From the NCBI GenBank assembly GCA_963701295.1, contig OY969585.1:3136001-3200000 (forward strand): 64,000 bases of DNA, in the 5' to 3' direction. Positions 22,963 to 36,225 of this stretch are shown here, in pieces. Under the pieces are notes generated by a model. It was not told the origin of the DNA. It saw only the letters and a list, made by a program, of their open reading frames with translations, and did no database searches. This stretch comes from Ignavibacteriota bacterium. Its GTDB lineage: Bacteria; Bacteroidota; Ignavibacteria; UBA10030. The first letter of the stretch is position 1. Each line of letters starts with the position of its first letter. Both the position numbers and the translations under genes were made by a program.

Positions 22963-23295
22963 ATGAATTATGAAGACAAACCTCTTGTTTGGTTACACGG
23001 TGAAGTAAAAACTCCACCGTTCTCAAAAAATGCTCGCCTTGAAGCTGGCTTTTTATTGAGACAGCTACAAGCGGGAGAAAAGCTAAGTCTCCCCTTCTCA
23101 AGACCGATGCCAGCAATTGGAGCAAGATGCCATGAACTCCGAATTAACGATGAAAATAAAATATGGCGTATCATTTATCGAATTGATTCCGATGCAATAA
23201 TTATTTTAGAAATCTTTCAAAAACAGACACAACAAACACCAAAGAATATTATTGATATCTGTAAACGTCGCTTACGAATATACGACGAATTATAA
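22963..23295 (+). CDS. RelE/ParE-superfamily (HigB/Gp49-like) toxin
   Basis: SRPMP.IG..C.ELRI...WRIIY...F.K.TQ.TP. Confidence 0.88.
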   Translation: MNYEDKPLVWLHGEVKTPPFSKNARLEAGFLLRQLQAGEKLSLPFSRPMPAIGARCHELRINDENKIWRIIYRIDSDAIIILEIFQKQTQQTPKNIIDICKRRLRIYDEL

Positions 23296-23306
23296 GGACA
23301 ACAAAA

Positions 23307-23618
23307 ATGGATAAAGCAAAACAAAAACGTCTTGAATCCGCAGGATGGAAAGTTGGAACAGCAAGCAATTTCCTTAACCTTTCTTCTGAGGAATCTGCAT
23401 ATATCGAACTCAAACTTCAATTAGCAAAGAACCTGCAGAAACGACGTATTGAGAAAAAACTTACACAAATGGCAGTAGCCCGAATGCTTAAATCAAGCCA
23501 ATCGCGTGTAGCAAAAATGGAATCAGGTGATCCGACCGTTTCTATCGACCTACTCATCCGTTCTCTGTTAGCTCTCGGTGCTAAACCAAGAGCGTTATTA
23601 CGAACTATTGCTCAATAA
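23307..23618 (+). CDS. XRE-family HTH antitoxin
   Basis: LTQ..VA..L.SSQSRVAKME; follows the toxin. Confidence 0.88.
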   Translation: MDKAKQKRLESAGWKVGTASNFLNLSSEESAYIELKLQLAKNLQKRRIEKKLTQMAVARMLKSSQSRVAKMESGDPTVSIDLLIRSLLALGAKPRALLRTIAQ

Positions 23619-30188: not shown

Positions 30189-30348
30189 ACATAACGGACG
30201 GGCACTAAGCTGCGGCGTTGATAACTTTCGTCATGCAACCAACGAAACAAGTCCCACAACGAAAGTTTTATCATTTGCACCAGACCCTATGCTTAGCCAT
30301 GTTAATTGCACCCAGCTGGCAACCGTCAGCTTGAGTGCCTGGTTAGGC
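30189..30348 (-). repeat. attC site (160 bp)
   Basis: Consensus arms. Confidence 0.9.
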
Positions 30349-30648
30349 TATTGTTACTTTGTTGTACAAACTTTCTTCATAGACAAAATATTCCGACTCT
30401 TTCATAACTCGAATTTTTCTGAGCACAGGCAGCGCATCACCGAGATGCTTTTTGGAACTTAACTTGCACTGCTTTTTTATTCTCGTTCAAATCAAAACTT
30501 GTTGACAACGTAACCGTATAGAAAGCAACCAACATTTTAGTCTGCACTTCGCCCTTAGAAACTTTTGCCAGTAGAAAGAAATATAAAACCCAAATAGGTA
30601 ACCACAATACTTTAAAACACAACTCACACAAAGCGCGCTGCCTGTGCA
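30349..30648 (-). ncRNA. ORF-less structured cassette, family copy A
   Basis: 13-bp stem 30423-30435 / 30635-30647; homologous to copies B and D; strand inferred. Confidence 0.6.
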
Positions 30649-30805
30649 GCCTAACGATTGGCAACTAAGCTGCGGCGTTGATAATTACGAGTCATGCAAT
30701 CAACGAAACGAGCCACACGTCTTTCGCGCCATAAAAATAACGTGTGTTTAGCGCCATGAATTTACCACCAACGCTCCAACCGTCAGCTTGAGTTGCTGGT
30801 TATGT
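30649..30805 (-). repeat. attC site (157 bp)
   Basis: Consensus arms. Confidence 0.88.
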
Positions 30806-31079
30806 TATAGTTTATTTAATGTACAAACTTTCCGAAAAACAATATTCGCTAACATCATCATAACTTGAATGTTTCTGAGCACAGGCAGCGCATCGCCGAG
30901 ATTCTTTTCGGTGCTTAACATGCACTGCTTTTTTCTCGTACAAAACAAAACTTGTTGACAGCATAACTTATAGAAAGCAACCAATCGCGAATTTTGTACA
31001 ATGTGAATGAAACTTAAAGCCAGTAGAACGCGATTACCAAACCCCGCAAGTAACACATACAGAGCGCGCTGCCTGTGCA
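30806..31079 (-). ncRNA. ORF-less structured cassette, family copy B
   Basis: 13-bp stem 30879-30891 / 31066-31078. Confidence 0.6.
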
Positions 31080-31232
31080 ACATAACGGACGGCAACTAAG
31101 CTGCAGCGCTGAAATGCCGTAAGTTGCTGAATACAAAATAAGTTTATTATAAGATCTTTTAAACAATAATTTCTAAGCGCCATGCTTAACGTACCAACGC
31201 TCATTCTGTCAGCTTGAGTTGCTTGGTTAGGC
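31080..31232 (-). repeat. attC site (153 bp)
   Basis: Consensus arms. Confidence 0.88.
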
Positions 31233-31431
31233 CAACAGATTTTAATTTTATCACCATTGGTCGAAAGACAACGACCGATACTTTCAAAATGTACTCAACG
31301 AAATAGATACTTGCGCGTGCGGTGCAAACGAATATTCAATTTAAACGGCACGACGTAGATAGCATTCAAACACTCGTAACAACAAAACATTTTTAAAAAC
31401 ATAATTACTAAACTTTCGCACCGCACGCGCG
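31233..31431 (-). ncRNA. ORF-less structured cassette C (different sequence, same layout)
   Basis: 13-bp stem GCGCGTGCGGTGC 31313-31325 / 31418-31430. Confidence 0.5.
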
Positions 31432-31583
31432 GCCTAACGGACGGCAACTAAGCTGCAGCGCTGATATGCCGCAAGTTGCTATCAACAAACCAAGTTTATT
31501 ACAAAATCTTTTAAACAATAATCTCTAAGTGTCATGCTTAACGTACCAATGCTCATTCTGTCAGCTTGAGTTGCTGGTTAGAA
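31432..31583 (-). repeat. attC site (152 bp)
   Basis: Consensus arms; very similar to 31080-31232. Confidence 0.88.
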
Positions 31584-31664
31584 CGCACGCGGTAGAATGC
31601 TCTATATAACATATGCAAGCATAAAGAGAACTATTGTCAGGGAGTAAAACAAAACGACCGTCAT

Positions 31665-32354
31665 TTAGTCGTTTGTTAACTGCCGTGCCTGCTTGATTTC
31701 TTCAGCAATTTCTTGAATCACTTTCCAGTTACGGGAGAGCCGTAAATATTTCGGATGATATGTACGGTAACATAGCTTTGGCAAACCTGGATGCTTGATT
31801 CGAAGCAGCAAGCCTACTTCAGGAGTACACTTCAATCCGGGGAATGTCTCTTTGAGACGTTCGTCATATTTTGAGCCTGTAAAGAATACCACAGCGTCTG
31901 GCTGCGTAATATCAATTTCCTTCTGTAAAAGGCCGAGATGACATATCTCATTTTCTGCATCAGCATCAGGTCTTCCATTCGACTGATCAAGCTTCACAAG
32001 ATTCGACCATAAGAAAGAATGTGAGGATTGGCCAGTATTCACGACTTTTTGAAGTTCACTCCCAGCTTGCCAAAATGGAGAACCTTTGGATTGTCCGCTC
32101 TGCGTGAAGTTAGCATACATATTCATCAATTGTTTTGGAGAATATGATCCATCGGGGAAAAAAGTATCATCCCAACCATAAGTCTGCTGTCCAACTACCA
32201 TAACTCGAGTCTTAAGGACGCAGTATTCCGTAGGAACACAGATGAGCTGAGGTTTAGAAAGACCCTTATGTGACGTTCCGATAGATTGAAGACGTGTGAA
32301 GACGCTAGAATAAAATTCCAACAGTTCCTCGTTTAACTCGCTCGCTACCATCAC
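31665..32354 (-). CDS. Uracil-DNA glycosylase superfamily protein
   Basis: VMVVGQ, W.NLVK, EI.I.QPD.VVFFTG and TYHP. Confidence 0.7.
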   Translation of the reverse strand: MMVASELNEELLEFYSSVFTRLQSIGTSHKGLSKPQLICVPTEYCVLKTRVMVVGQQTYGWDDTFFPDGSYSPKQLMNMYANFTQSGQSKGSPFWQAGSELQKVVNTGQSSHSFLWSNLVKLDQSNGRPDADAENEICHLGLLQKEIDITQPDAVVFFTGSKYDERLKETFPGLKCTPEVGLLLRIKHPGLPKLCYRTYHPKYLRLSRNWKVIQEIAEEIKQARQLTND

Positions 32355-32642
32355 TTACCTGACAAAAAATATCCATATTGCGGCAAGAGTAATCCCACCA
32401 AAGCCACCTTCTATTGAGTTACGAGCATTATCTATAGACCCAATTCGGGATCCTCGATCATCACAGATGTCGGATCCTCGTACGAAGGCAATTCTGTTTC
32501 CTCGGTCGTCGAGAATAAAATCGCCCTGTACATATCCGAGTCGTCCACCTCGGTCGTCTTTGATATCGTTTCCTTGAATATAACCAACTCGGCGACCGGA
32601 GCTATCGTGAATATTATTTCCTTGCATTTTCATGTTAGGCAT
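32355..32642 (-). CDS. Small beta-flower-like repeat protein with C-terminal hydrophobic helix
   Basis: Four I.D.(R/S)G.R.G repeats. Confidence 0.65.
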   Translation of the reverse strand: MPNMKMQGNNIHDSSGRRVGYIQGNDIKDDRGGRLGYVQGDFILDDRGNRIAFVRGSDICDDRGSRIGSIDNARNSIEGGFGGITLAAIWIFFVR

Positions 32643-32722
32643 AATTGGTTCCTTTCGTTAAGGTTTATAAAAAACACGAATGGCAGATAATTATTTTAAC
32701 TACACCAAAAGTAATTCGTGCG

Positions 32723-32917
32723 TTCTAACGGACTGGCGCTAAGCTGCGGCGCTGATAATTTTCAAATTGCAATGAACGAAACAAGTTCATGCTGAAACCA
32801 AATTAATAAAAACAAAAGTTATAGGTACTAAAAACTGAATAATAAAAACGATAACCCACCACCAGCCATGCTTAACGTAGCCACGCTCATTCCGTCAGCT
32901 TGAGCGCCTGGTTAGGC
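32723..32917 (-). repeat. attC site (195 bp)
   Basis: Consensus arms. Confidence 0.9.
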
Positions 32918-33694
32918 GCCATTGGTACGTAAATTCCTTGATACCTTACCGATATATAACGCAACTTTAGACTTTAGCAACGGTTCACCATGTACAAAAA
33001 ATGGACCGTAAAGTTGACCACGTGACACTTTATTGACTGTACCGTTTGAAAGTTGTTCCATAAAGTTTTCTAAATCGGTTTCATTTTTAGCATGCTTTTT
33101 ATCAGTAGTTGCATTTGTAATAAACTCATGAACAAGCATAATTGATCTCGAACATCCCTTGCGCTCCGCTTCACAAAGCGCGCCAGCGCAAGCGGTGAGA
33201 AGCTGATAACGTAGATTACCGAAACGTGCACTGTCTTTCATTTGCAATCCTAATAAAGCCAAAACCAATTGCTCAGCACGGATTGCTCCATTAGAGTTTG
33301 GATCTTTCTTGCGTCGTTCAAATGCTTTCGAAAACGTTTGTGCAACCGATTCACCAAATGGCTCATCTGCTTTTGCCTCTACAGCTAAAAGATATAAACC
33401 GAATGTATCCCGCACATAAACAGCTATATCGCTATTTCGGGTTTCGCCAGAAAAGTCGTCGAACTTGAGTTTTGCTTCTGGCTCTGCAACCCATGTCAGC
33501 ACAGGGCCGAAATTTGGATGACCCGAAAGGATGGAAACAACTTCTTCCGGCATTTTATTTCCAGCTCCCAGCCAAGCGCGCGCAACTTCCTTCGCACTTC
33601 GTTCATCTTTCCATTGGTTCGGTCTTTTGGGGCCCGCATATCTACGCCACTTCTCAAGTGAATCAATTACACGGTCATTTTTATTGATTGACAT
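32912..33694 (-). CDS. DUF6946-like putative PD-(D/E)XK nuclease
   Basis: WK..RSAKE.A.AW, R..D...VEAK.DE.FG and RYQLL. Confidence 0.6.
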   Translation of the reverse strand: MSINKNDRVIDSLEKWRRYAGPKRPNQWKDERSAKEVARAWLGAGNKMPEEVVSILSGHPNFGPVLTWVAEPEAKLKFDDFSGETRNSDIAVYVRDTFGLYLLAVEAKADEPFGESVAQTFSKAFERRKKDPNSNGAIRAEQLVLALLGLQMKDSARFGNLRYQLLTACAGALCEAERKGCSRSIMLVHEFITNATTDKKHAKNETDLENFMEQLSNGTVNKVSRGQLYGPFFVHGEPLLKSKVALYIGKVSRNLRTNGA

Positions 33695-33711
33695 GTATTT
33701 TCTCCAATGGC

Positions 33712-33906
33712 GCCTAACGGACTGGCGCTAAGCTGCGGCGCTGATAATTTTCAAGTTGCTGATAACGAAACAGGTTCATGCTAATAACCAAATTGATAAG
33801 TATCAATGTTATAGATACTAAAAACTGAATAGTAAAAACGAAAAACCACCATTAGCCATGAATTTTGCAGTTGGCTCATTCCGTCAGCTTGAGCGCCTGG
33901 TTAGGC
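33712..33906 (-). repeat. attC site (195 bp)
   Basis: Consensus arms. Confidence 0.9.
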
Positions 33907-34713
33907 GCCAACGTCTTTGATACTTTCATTAAGTTCGTCGCCAGACTTGAGCAACTCAGAAAATCTCTTGATGAAACGAGCGGCCGGTGCACCATCAACA
34001 ATCTCATGATTGAATGAAACCGTGAGGCAAAGATGCTCTCTTGATTCAAGCTTGTTCTCGATAATCTTTGGTCGGTCAACAATAGTTCCTACCGTCACAA
34101 CAACAGTACCTCCACCAACAGGAATAAACCAGAGAGCCTCGTTCCCGAACATTCCAACCGCTGTAACAGCAACCTTGCCGTAACGTTTACTCATGGAAAT
34201 GCTATGAGATGCAGCGCGAATAAAGGTGCGAAGAAGAAATCTTGGGATCAAGCGAAACCAAAATATCCCAGAGAGTGCGCCTAACTCCCCTTGATTAGTA
34301 TGTTGAGCCGATCTAATCTCATCGTGAATTTGGCGATATGTCTTCATTTGTGCTGCTCGAATACCCAAAGGTTCGGGGACTTTTTCACTGTTGATATCAC
34401 GCTCAATGAGGACAGAAATTGCGATGTCATTGAGGAGAATGAGCTTTCGGCCCTTACGAAATGAATTCAGATGTGGATGTTCGGCAATTGCACGCGCCAA
34501 GCAAGTAACAATGAACGCTGTAAAGGAAAGACGTTCTCCAGTTCGCTGCAGATGTTCCCGAATGATACGCCTAGGCTCGGAAACGTCAACCTCAAGAATG
34601 CCATGGATAGTATCTTGCTCGTTGCCAATTGCAGCGGCAGCTGCCACCATTTGCCTATTGTGCGTGAATGGAATAGAACGATAGCCTGAAGATTTGATTG
34701 AATCTGACTGCAT
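33901..34713 (-). CDS. Stand-alone 2-oxoacid dehydrogenase E2-like acyltransferase domain
   Basis: LTVSFNHEIVDGAPAARF (DHR..DG-type motif). Confidence 0.85.
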   Translation of the reverse strand: MQSDSIKSSGYRSIPFTHNRQMVAAAAAIGNEQDTIHGILEVDVSEPRRIIREHLQRTGERLSFTAFIVTCLARAIAEHPHLNSFRKGRKLILLNDIAISVLIERDINSEKVPEPLGIRAAQMKTYRQIHDEIRSAQHTNQGELGALSGIFWFRLIPRFLLRTFIRAASHSISMSKRYGKVAVTAVGMFGNEALWFIPVGGGTVVVTVGTIVDRPKIIENKLESREHLCLTVSFNHEIVDGAPAARFIKRFSELLKSGDELNESIKDVGA

Positions 34714-34736
34714 CCAAAACCTTTCTTTGCGTTGGC

Positions 34737-34892
34737 GCCTAACGGTTGGCGGCTAAGCTGCCGCATTGATAATTTTCAAAATATACAAAACGAAACACGT
34801 TCATAGTACATACTTTCAAGTTAAAATAAAACCTATGTGCGCCATGAATTTAGTAGTGAGCTCATCCGGTCAGCTTGAGCCGCTGGTTAGAA
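34737..34892 (-). repeat. attC site (156 bp)
   Basis: Consensus arms. Confidence 0.9.
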
Positions 34893-35015
34893 CACACATG
34901 GCTGATTATTCAATTATTAAAATCATTGTCACGTTTGCTTTTTACGCAAAAGTAAATGTTATGGCTAAACATCTTTTGGAATTGCTCACTAAAATGTAAC
35001 CGAAACATCCTGCAG

Positions 35016-35546
35016 TTAAGTGAGTGAAATATTCCGTGGGTGTAATGGCCAATCTGGTCGTCCAGTGATGCCAGGATGCTTTGGAGGCACATTCTGTACA
35101 CGCCGGTAAAATGAATCTAGCTCCCAGAAATGAATTTTACCCCGATTTTCAGGTTTCCTGAGTTCATCAACATAATTGCCCATGATTCCATCCCATAACT
35201 GAACTAAAGGGGGCGCGTAAAACCGATCGATGAGATCCGGATCAACTAGTTTGTGCCGATCCAAAAGACCAAGGACATCAAATGCTCGGCACACCTTGTC
35301 GAGGTTTTCTAACTTTCCATCTTTTTTCATATCTGACCAAGTTTTATTCCTCTGGATGTATGTACGGATGATAGCACGATCCGGCCTTACCTCTTCCATA
35401 AATTTTACTGCATGCATGAAGGATTCTAATTCAAAAGCCTCATGTTGTAGTTTGACTTGATACTTGCTATTCCGGATAATAAGTCCTGTCATAATTGCAT
35501 ATGCAAGTAATGATCCGAACTCTAACACATTTTGAATAGTAAACAT
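35016..35546 (-). CDS. DUF4760-like membrane-anchored protein
   Basis: AAGGAGG RBS; N-terminal TM; F..LG.L....VD...W pattern. Confidence 0.6.
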   Translation of the reverse strand: MFTIQNVLEFGSLLAYAIMTGLIIRNSKYQVKLQHEAFELESFMHAVKFMEEVRPDRAIIRTYIQRNKTWSDMKKDGKLENLDKVCRAFDVLGLLDRHKLVDPDLIDRFYAPPLVQLWDGIMGNYVDELRKPENRGKIHFWELDSFYRRVQNVPPKHPGITGRPDWPLHPRNISLT

Positions 35547-35659
35547 TTTTATATATCCTCCTTAATTTTTTGATCATTTGGTTTTCTATATTACTATTTT
35601 TTGAATCACTTGTGGATGTTATCATAAGTTTAATAAAAATATTATAGCTGGTTTGTGTG

Positions 35660-35810
35660 TTCTAACGGACGGCACTAAGCTGCGGTGCTAATAACTTTCA
35701 AGTTGTACTATCTTCGCGCGAGCATCATTCTTACAATTTAACATCTACACTTTCGACGCGCGGTGAAATGCACCGTCGCTCATTCCGTCAGCTTGAGTGC
35801 TTGGTTAGGT
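35660..35810 (-). repeat. attC site (151 bp)
   Basis: Consensus arms. Confidence 0.9.
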
Positions 35811-36039
35811 TATAGTTATTTCGTTGTACAGAATTTCTTTTAAGATACACTTTGCTCACACCATCACAACTTTAATTTTTCTGACCACAGGCAGCGCATT
35901 AACGAGATTCTTTTTCTCTCGTACAAAACAATTCTTGTTAACACCACACACTTATTGAAAGCAACCAATTTCTAAATCTGTAGAATCTCTATAAAAACCA
36001 AAGCCATTTGACAACGACACAGAGCGCGCTGCCTGTGGA
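35811..36039 (-). ncRNA. ORF-less structured cassette, family copy D (first in array)
   Basis: 13-bp stem 35885-35897 / 36026-36038. Confidence 0.6.
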
Positions 36040-36114
36040 ACCTAACTATGATTAGACTGCATATCGCAGCCTAATACGCTTTTTTGAGTGTTAGACTGCA
36101 TATTGCAGCCTAAC
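36040..36114 (-). other. attI-like site with two palindromic direct repeats
   Basis: Core GTTAGGT not followed by attC arms; TTAGACTGCATAT(C/T)GCAGCCTAA at 36052-36074 and 36091-36113. Confidence 0.7.
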
Positions 36115-36196
36115 ATGATGAACTTGGTAACTATGAAACGGATTTTGGCAGCTCCCAACAATTCCCCACTTTCTTTAGATACTTATCCGCGCTGGT

Positions 36197-36225
36197 AATC
36201 TATCAATTGCGTCACTGAAATGCAA
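36197..36225 (-). promoter_or_regulatory. Candidate Pc-like promoter firing into the array
   Basis: TTGCAT-N17-TAGATT with extended TG. Confidence 0.5.

Follow-up and report, generated by a model that had tools for sequence, protein, structure and literature searches.

Gene-less integron cassettes of an Ignavibacteriota bacterium share a core-abutting 13-bp stem that may act as a single-stranded-DNA clamp

A group of short integron cassettes in the genome of an Ignavibacteriota bacterium (assembly GCA_963701295.1, contig OY969585.1) raises the question of what a long-range stem is doing in cassettes that carry no gene, and whether it belongs to an RNA or to the DNA itself. The window, i.e. 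the whole 64,000-nt stretch analysed here (positions 3,136,001 to 3,200,000 of the forward strand), lies in a host genome consisting of a single 3.64-Mb contig, and its cassettes sit in a minus-strand array. A preliminary description of three of these cassettes (A, B and D) had proposed a structured RNA mobilized by the integron, with a single-stranded DNA (ssDNA) element as the alternative. We find that a conserved, integron-mobilized non-coding element with a covarying long-range stem is supported, on stronger grounds than three copies could provide, and that the ssDNA alternative fits it better than a structured RNA. On the reading that we favour, to which we give a probability of roughly 0.45, the 13-bp stem would be an ssDNA clamp beside the crossover point and the empty members would be self-propagating minimal cassettes.

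Anatomy of the gene-less cassettes

The cassettes, their stem arms and the associated attC sites are as follows (coordinates refer to the window).

30342..30655, minus strand: gene-less cassette A, core to core, 314 bp; a second array of the genome holds an identical copy
30350..30422: 73-nt spacer separating the R'' core of A from its inner arm
30423..30435: A, inner arm of the 13-bp stem
30635..30647: A, arm of the same stem that abuts the core
30799..31086, minus strand: gene-less cassette B, 288 bp, with stem arms at 30879-30891 and 31066-31078, a 72-nt spacer and a 174-nt loop
31226..31438, minus strand: gene-less cassette C, 213 bp, with stem arms at 31313-31325 and 31418-31430, a 79-nt spacer and a 92-nt loop
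35804..36046, minus strand: gene-less cassette D, 243 bp, the array's first cassette, with stem arms at 35885-35897 and 36026-36038, a 73-nt spacer and a 128-nt loop
30192..30346, minus strand: attC site of A, with a long variable terminal region
30652..30803, minus strand: attC site of B
31083..31230, minus strand: attC site of C
31435..31581, minus strand: attC site upstream of C
35663..35808, minus strand: attC site of D

A, B and D are genuine gene-less integron cassettes: complementary GTTRRRY-type cores are followed by attC sites with L boxes, and the genome supplies attI and the integrase gene intI. They are homologous but diverged, as had been reported, with a mean column identity of 78 % in our alignment, and the short motifs and G/T-rich minus strand attributed to them are present. 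The claim that they lack any internal open reading frame (ORF) needs qualifying, as TTG-started minus-strand frames of 64 codons (A) and 92 codons (B) exist; what stands is that no ORF is conserved, the homologues carrying frameshifting indels in keeping with the definition of ORF-less cassettes given by Boucher, which asks for the absence of ORFs above 150 bp or for conserved homologues lacking a codon pattern. One further small ORF, of 11 codons and starting in the inner arm, was rejected because 13 of 34 copies have it shortened to 7 codons.

Each cassette follows the same order: an 8-bp core, a 13-bp arm directly abutting it, a variable loop, the partner arm and a spacer. The inverted repeat is perfect in A, B and D, and the arithmetic chance of an anchored perfect 13-bp repeat within 300 nt is ~5e-6. 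Cassette C, which belongs to a different branch, has the same architecture.

A stem conserved across branches and payloads

Using profile hidden Markov models and sequence patterns, we found eight A/B/D-type copies in the host genome, all of them whole cassettes inside arrays (A occurs twice, identically), matches in 5 of 60 relatives, all within the same genus, and 28 loci in a metagenome scan, whose pattern fixed the core-side arm and hence suppresses variation there. The set holds 39 distinct near-complete A/B/D-type sequences, 38 of which were aligned; the alignments exclude three fragments and one partial homologue truncated at the edge of its contig. The same frame recurs, with other loops and spacers, in C and further short cassettes. 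With the gene-bearing relatives included, the full family counts 62 members, and the partner arm is present in each (10-13 of 13 positions paired). The gap-free contact between arm and core holds in all 62 by construction of the set, and core pairing is complete (8/8 pairs) in 52 of 54 members. Spacer length is 71-79 nt in 60 of the 62, though the branches are barely more alike in spacer sequence than shuffles, while loops span 83-4030 nt and gene-less bodies 125-323 bp. The host genome alone contains 12 gene-less frames and one gene-bearing frame, copies of the family occur in four of its arrays, and identical copies stand among different neighbours in several arrays.

The family is narrowly distributed. 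Of 277 genomes of the order, 7 matched an arm-plus-core pattern: six belong to this genus, and the seventh, from another family, has an intact frame with a 40-nt spacer. A class-wide search returned eight matches outside the genus, none with a partner arm pairing at more than 9/13 positions. Phage and plasmid collections gave no match to B plus C, and viral contigs gave no match with two patterns.

Across the 25 arm haplotypes found among the 62 members, 297 of 325 cells are Watson-Crick pairs (91 %, compared with a mean of 74 % and a maximum of 83 % for shuffled partners), and 8 of the 13 stem positions show alternative pair types, although many cells are inherited from few events. On this comparison, the 13-bp stem is well supported across branches, and the compensatory swap reported for D can be seen in it as a change from G-C to C-G. 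Among the 38 close homologues, only three stem pairs are changed on both sides, and in a tree-aware test a single core pair was significant while stem pairs individually were not; the power of that test on the stem is low because the arms barely vary. The expectation that further homologues would covary was borne out for the stem across branches, but covariation is thin on the close family alone. Of the 13 non-wobble arm mismatches, 12 are purine-purine on the bottom strand, a point in favour of DNA.

Little else in the cassettes folds. The consensus folds of either strand contain the 8-bp core pairing and a 13-14-bp stem, besides a few helices of 2-3 bp, and the whole-cassette fold of A is no better than that of shuffled sequences on either strand (z -0.8 and -1.1). 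The inner CGAGA/TCTCG stem of the preliminary description did not survive, as it has no compensatory change in 38 homologues and is absent from both consensus folds. The loop does contain conserved blocks (gamma alpha ~1.0).

The stem is also independent of what it encloses. Gene-bearing frames, sought by a general search of all cassettes of the genome and then by pattern in further genomes, comprise seven complete cassettes in five genomes (745-4148 bp), each with 627-4030 nt of unrelated payload inside the stem and spacer; one candidate without its far end was excluded from the counts. Payloads include a methylase fragment and an MvaI/BcnI nuclease, a two-gene payload on the opposite strand and two weak SieB-like matches below cut-off. 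In L129, L131, L136, L137 and L138, both ends of the payload carry an additional inner inverted repeat as well as a short direct repeat rich in A, and L136 and L138 have additional nested flank sequence in common. Genes are absent from all 54 members of the A/B/D, C, G, E and H branches, and 16 genomes yielded no empty counterpart of the gene-bearing branch.

The frame also behaves as a set of modules. The arm is where spacers and loops are exchanged: in one member, a G-type spacer is combined with a loop 94 % identical to that of a C-type member. Another member lacks exactly the spacer, which leaves a 21-bp terminal repeat, while its loop is 82-90 % identical to those of its spacer-bearing sisters. 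This repeat resembles those of ordinary attC-bounded cassettes in the same genome, 30 of 54 of which end in perfect terminal repeats of 13-16 bp, none longer. The terminal repeats of ordinary cassettes each have their own sequence, ten are exactly 16 bp (an example is at 32911-33718 of the window), and they may reflect a copying step in cassette formation. A gene-less, A/C-rich 251-bp cassette without the clamp (L039) has a 12-bp terminal repeat.

DNA clamp, RNA or scaffold

The same stem surrounds unrelated genes in relatives, which makes a DNA-handling frame likelier than a structured RNA, and on these sequence comparisons we consider the clamp likely to be such a frame. Since the arms likely pair in the ssDNA substrate of the integrase, the empty members would probably be self-propagating minimal cassettes rather than RNA genes. 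The attC site is known to recombine as a folded bottom strand (accessible text of PMC5371416), and the arms would pair while the cassette is single-stranded for cutting and joining by the integrase. Within the excised circle, end-to-end stacking of the 13-bp helix on the 8-bp core helix would let the clamp do the job likely done by the 13-16-bp terminal repeats in ordinary cassettes of the host. Loop and spacer would be kept G-poor on the recombining strand, which would avoid mispairing with attC, and we infer that IntI acting in trans moves and multiplies the gene-less cassettes.

The composition of the cassettes is consistent with such a role. The bottom strand of loops and spacers is A/C-rich and G-poor, like the attC loops of this genome; apart from one single-member spacer, their GC skew lies between -0.13 and -0.41, compared with -0.23 in attC loops and -0.06 to -0.15 at neutral sites. 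Loops and spacers also share 8-mers with the attC loops of the genome, modestly above shuffles in most sets, so that the likeness extends to some short words. The paired arms and unstructured, strand-biased loop recall attC and its variable terminal structure as described in the accessible text of PMC5371416 and PMC5027507. Unlike attC, however, the frame, in cassette orientation, is flanked by two intact attC sites and has neither L boxes nor extrahelical bases; it does not show the R''-L''...L'-R' order, and a profile of A/B/D gave no attC match.

Several observations weigh against the clamp. Computed attC folding in the circle is ~0.8 with or without the arm in most replicates; coaxial stacking lies outside the model, and the sensitivity of this folding test is partial, as removal of the ordinary terminal extension mattered clearly in only three of seven controls. 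Wobble pairs pick no strand (seven bottom, eight top), and folding is more stable for the top strand. Bottom strands of mobile-integron attC sites are G-rich (accessible text of PMC5027507), in contrast to the G-poor ones found here. Covariation cannot separate ssDNA from RNA, and the clamp leaves the fixed 71-79-nt spacer and the conserved loop blocks unexplained, as do its rivals.

The original proposal of an RNA gene is the rival that survives best, although we consider it unlikely. Here, the stem would close a non-coding RNA (ncRNA) transcribed from the array or from its own promoter, possibly cut at the core-plus-arm helix, with the unstructured loop as a sponge or antisense payload. The covarying GC-rich stem of conserved sequence, the conserved loop blocks and the swapping of spacers and loops as modules at the arm would all suit this, and an integron small RNA is known (sRNA-Xcc1 of Xanthomonas, as cited in the accessible text of PMC6557892 and PMC8876359), likewise a non-coding integron cassette and compared here by its description only. 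However, conservation is confined to one helix, the 13-bp stem, together with the attC core pairing; no inner helix appears in the consensus folds, folding z-scores are near 0, and the stem is kept around payloads of 0.6-4 kb of unrelated genes in seven relatives, one of them reversed. An Rfam search gave no match to the window cassettes at E<=10 and none above gathering score in eight other loci. Ten metatranscriptome runs contain 5-8 % of the words of the stretch, and in seven of them attC sites and portions of the gene-less bodies are covered, at low depth, by contigs of relatives. In three RNA runs, such contigs cross the spacer-arm boundary of B with no shared end listed, although the contigs may be DNA. 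This evidence consists of assembled contigs of relatives and therefore carries no strand, ends or level, with DNA carry-over uncontrolled and no silent control stretch. The family also shows that a covarying stem does not, on its own, make a cassette an RNA gene.

A second possibility, which we rate as distinctly unlikely, is a gene-capture scaffold, in which empty frames would be precursors or blank cassettes kept and amplified by the integron, their loops taking up genes as a route to new cassettes. One branch does hold unrelated genes, including restriction-modification genes, in most members flanked by a further inverted repeat of 13-17 bp together with a short, A-rich direct repeat, and a frame that loses precisely its spacer becomes an ordinary long terminal repeat. 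According to the accessible text of PMC5371416, little is known of how cassettes form de novo, and a capture scaffold, if true, would be the first sequence-level handle on how integron cassettes are made. The gene-free state of the 54 members noted above and the missing empty form of the gene-bearing branch speak against it, however, as does the single gene-bearing frame of the host genome, and the change could be either gain or loss of payload.

Promoter or spacing cassettes that tune the expression of their neighbours, as in Vibrio and Treponema, are improbable here. The frame cassettes have AT-rich bodies and, in the accessible text of the respective papers, promoter activity is reported for most of 29 gene-less Vibrionaceae cassettes (PMC11014356) and for ORF-less oral-metagenome cassettes of Treponema-like type (PMC6557892), which have in common with ours the lack of an ORF, AT-richness and an ordinary attC. 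In contrast to the Vibrionaceae cassettes, no conserved sigma-70 promoter was found, and bodies measure 125-323 bp as opposed to cassettes of 491-666 bp. A matrix trained on the host genome, where sigma-70-type promoters are used, found neither strand of the 38 homologues to contain a conserved site (top scores of 5.5 and 6.7, compared with 6.4 and 7.8 in shuffles; the attI promoter, as positive control, scored 14.7), and a generic promoter scan gave 16 sites where 15.6 were expected. Alternative sigma factors were inspected by eye only. A promoter role would also leave the stem unexplained.

Inverted repeats of 13 bp around 80-200 bp resemble the ends of miniature inverted-repeat transposable elements (MITEs) and of invertible segments, and B has its 92-codon frame, but it is very improbable that the arms are such ends or that the cassettes encode small proteins: there is no copy outside arrays in the genome and no target duplication at the arms, none of the 38 loops is inverted and central arm mismatches are common, and homologue lengths fall in all three frames with no start column giving a conserved ORF length. 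Resemblances to retrons, 6S RNA, REPINs and group II introns were considered and dropped on inspection.

The closest described counterparts are the paralogous non-coding cassettes of Vibrio (Boucher et al. 2006; main text, PMC1382264), which are likewise gene-less, multi-copy, lineage-restricted and conserved over their full length, and for which the authors left open whether they are selfish elements or carry a promoter or RNA. The present family differs from them in its covarying core-abutting stem, fixed spacer, modular swapping and gene-bearing branch, and the terms 'inverted repeat' and 'secondary structure' are absent from the main text of that paper. Full-text searches of the openly available literature, main texts only, turned up no account of a frame like this. 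In Vibrio, 6-49 % of an array consists of gene-less cassettes (main text of PMC1382264). The family described here offers a defined, mutable unit: the 13-bp stem adjoins the crossover without a gap, the spacer is of fixed length, and spacer-less and gene-filled variants occur naturally, so that selfish-DNA, RNA, promoter and gene-capture ideas are separable in a standard recombination assay.

The array and its genomic setting

A pattern scan of the whole genome found 103 attC-like sites in several arrays. A genome-wide family search found only one intI above the TIGR02249 cut-off, ~395 kb away from the window array, which has no adjoining intI. Two features lie upstream of D.

36041..36126, minus strand: attI copy, matching the attI next to the genome's only intI with 96.5 % identity over 86 nt
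36197..36225, minus strand: predicted Pc-like promoter of the array, which scores 14.7 with the host-trained matrix (~90th percentile among regions upstream of genes)

As D adjoins this attI copy and the predicted promoter ~150 bp upstream of it, with no intI nearby, it is the first cassette of a promoter-bearing array without its own integrase, in agreement with the first position originally assigned to it. Across the family, there is no enrichment of the first position: of 53 gene-less members whose context is known, 7 abut attI, compared with ~10 attI-like per 103 attC-like sites in this genome. Those attI-like sites (G000:C1, ten places) occur in a genome with one intI, and arrays appear to have been seeded with attI, sometimes together with part of the upstream promoter region.

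Most attC sites of the genome measure 144-208 bp, exceeding the 57-141 bp quoted in the accessible text of PMC5371416, and their bottom strands are G-poor, opposite to the published skew.

The right arm of one attC site is interrupted by an IS110-family element (PF01548, PF02371; 27570-28986 of the window). The genome has ten further copies, whose examined flanks likewise contain attC sequence, as with the attC-targeting IS1111 elements. A Gp49/RelE-like gene paired with a helix-turn-helix gene (22963-23618 of the window) is oriented against the array and is likely a toxin-antitoxin cassette.

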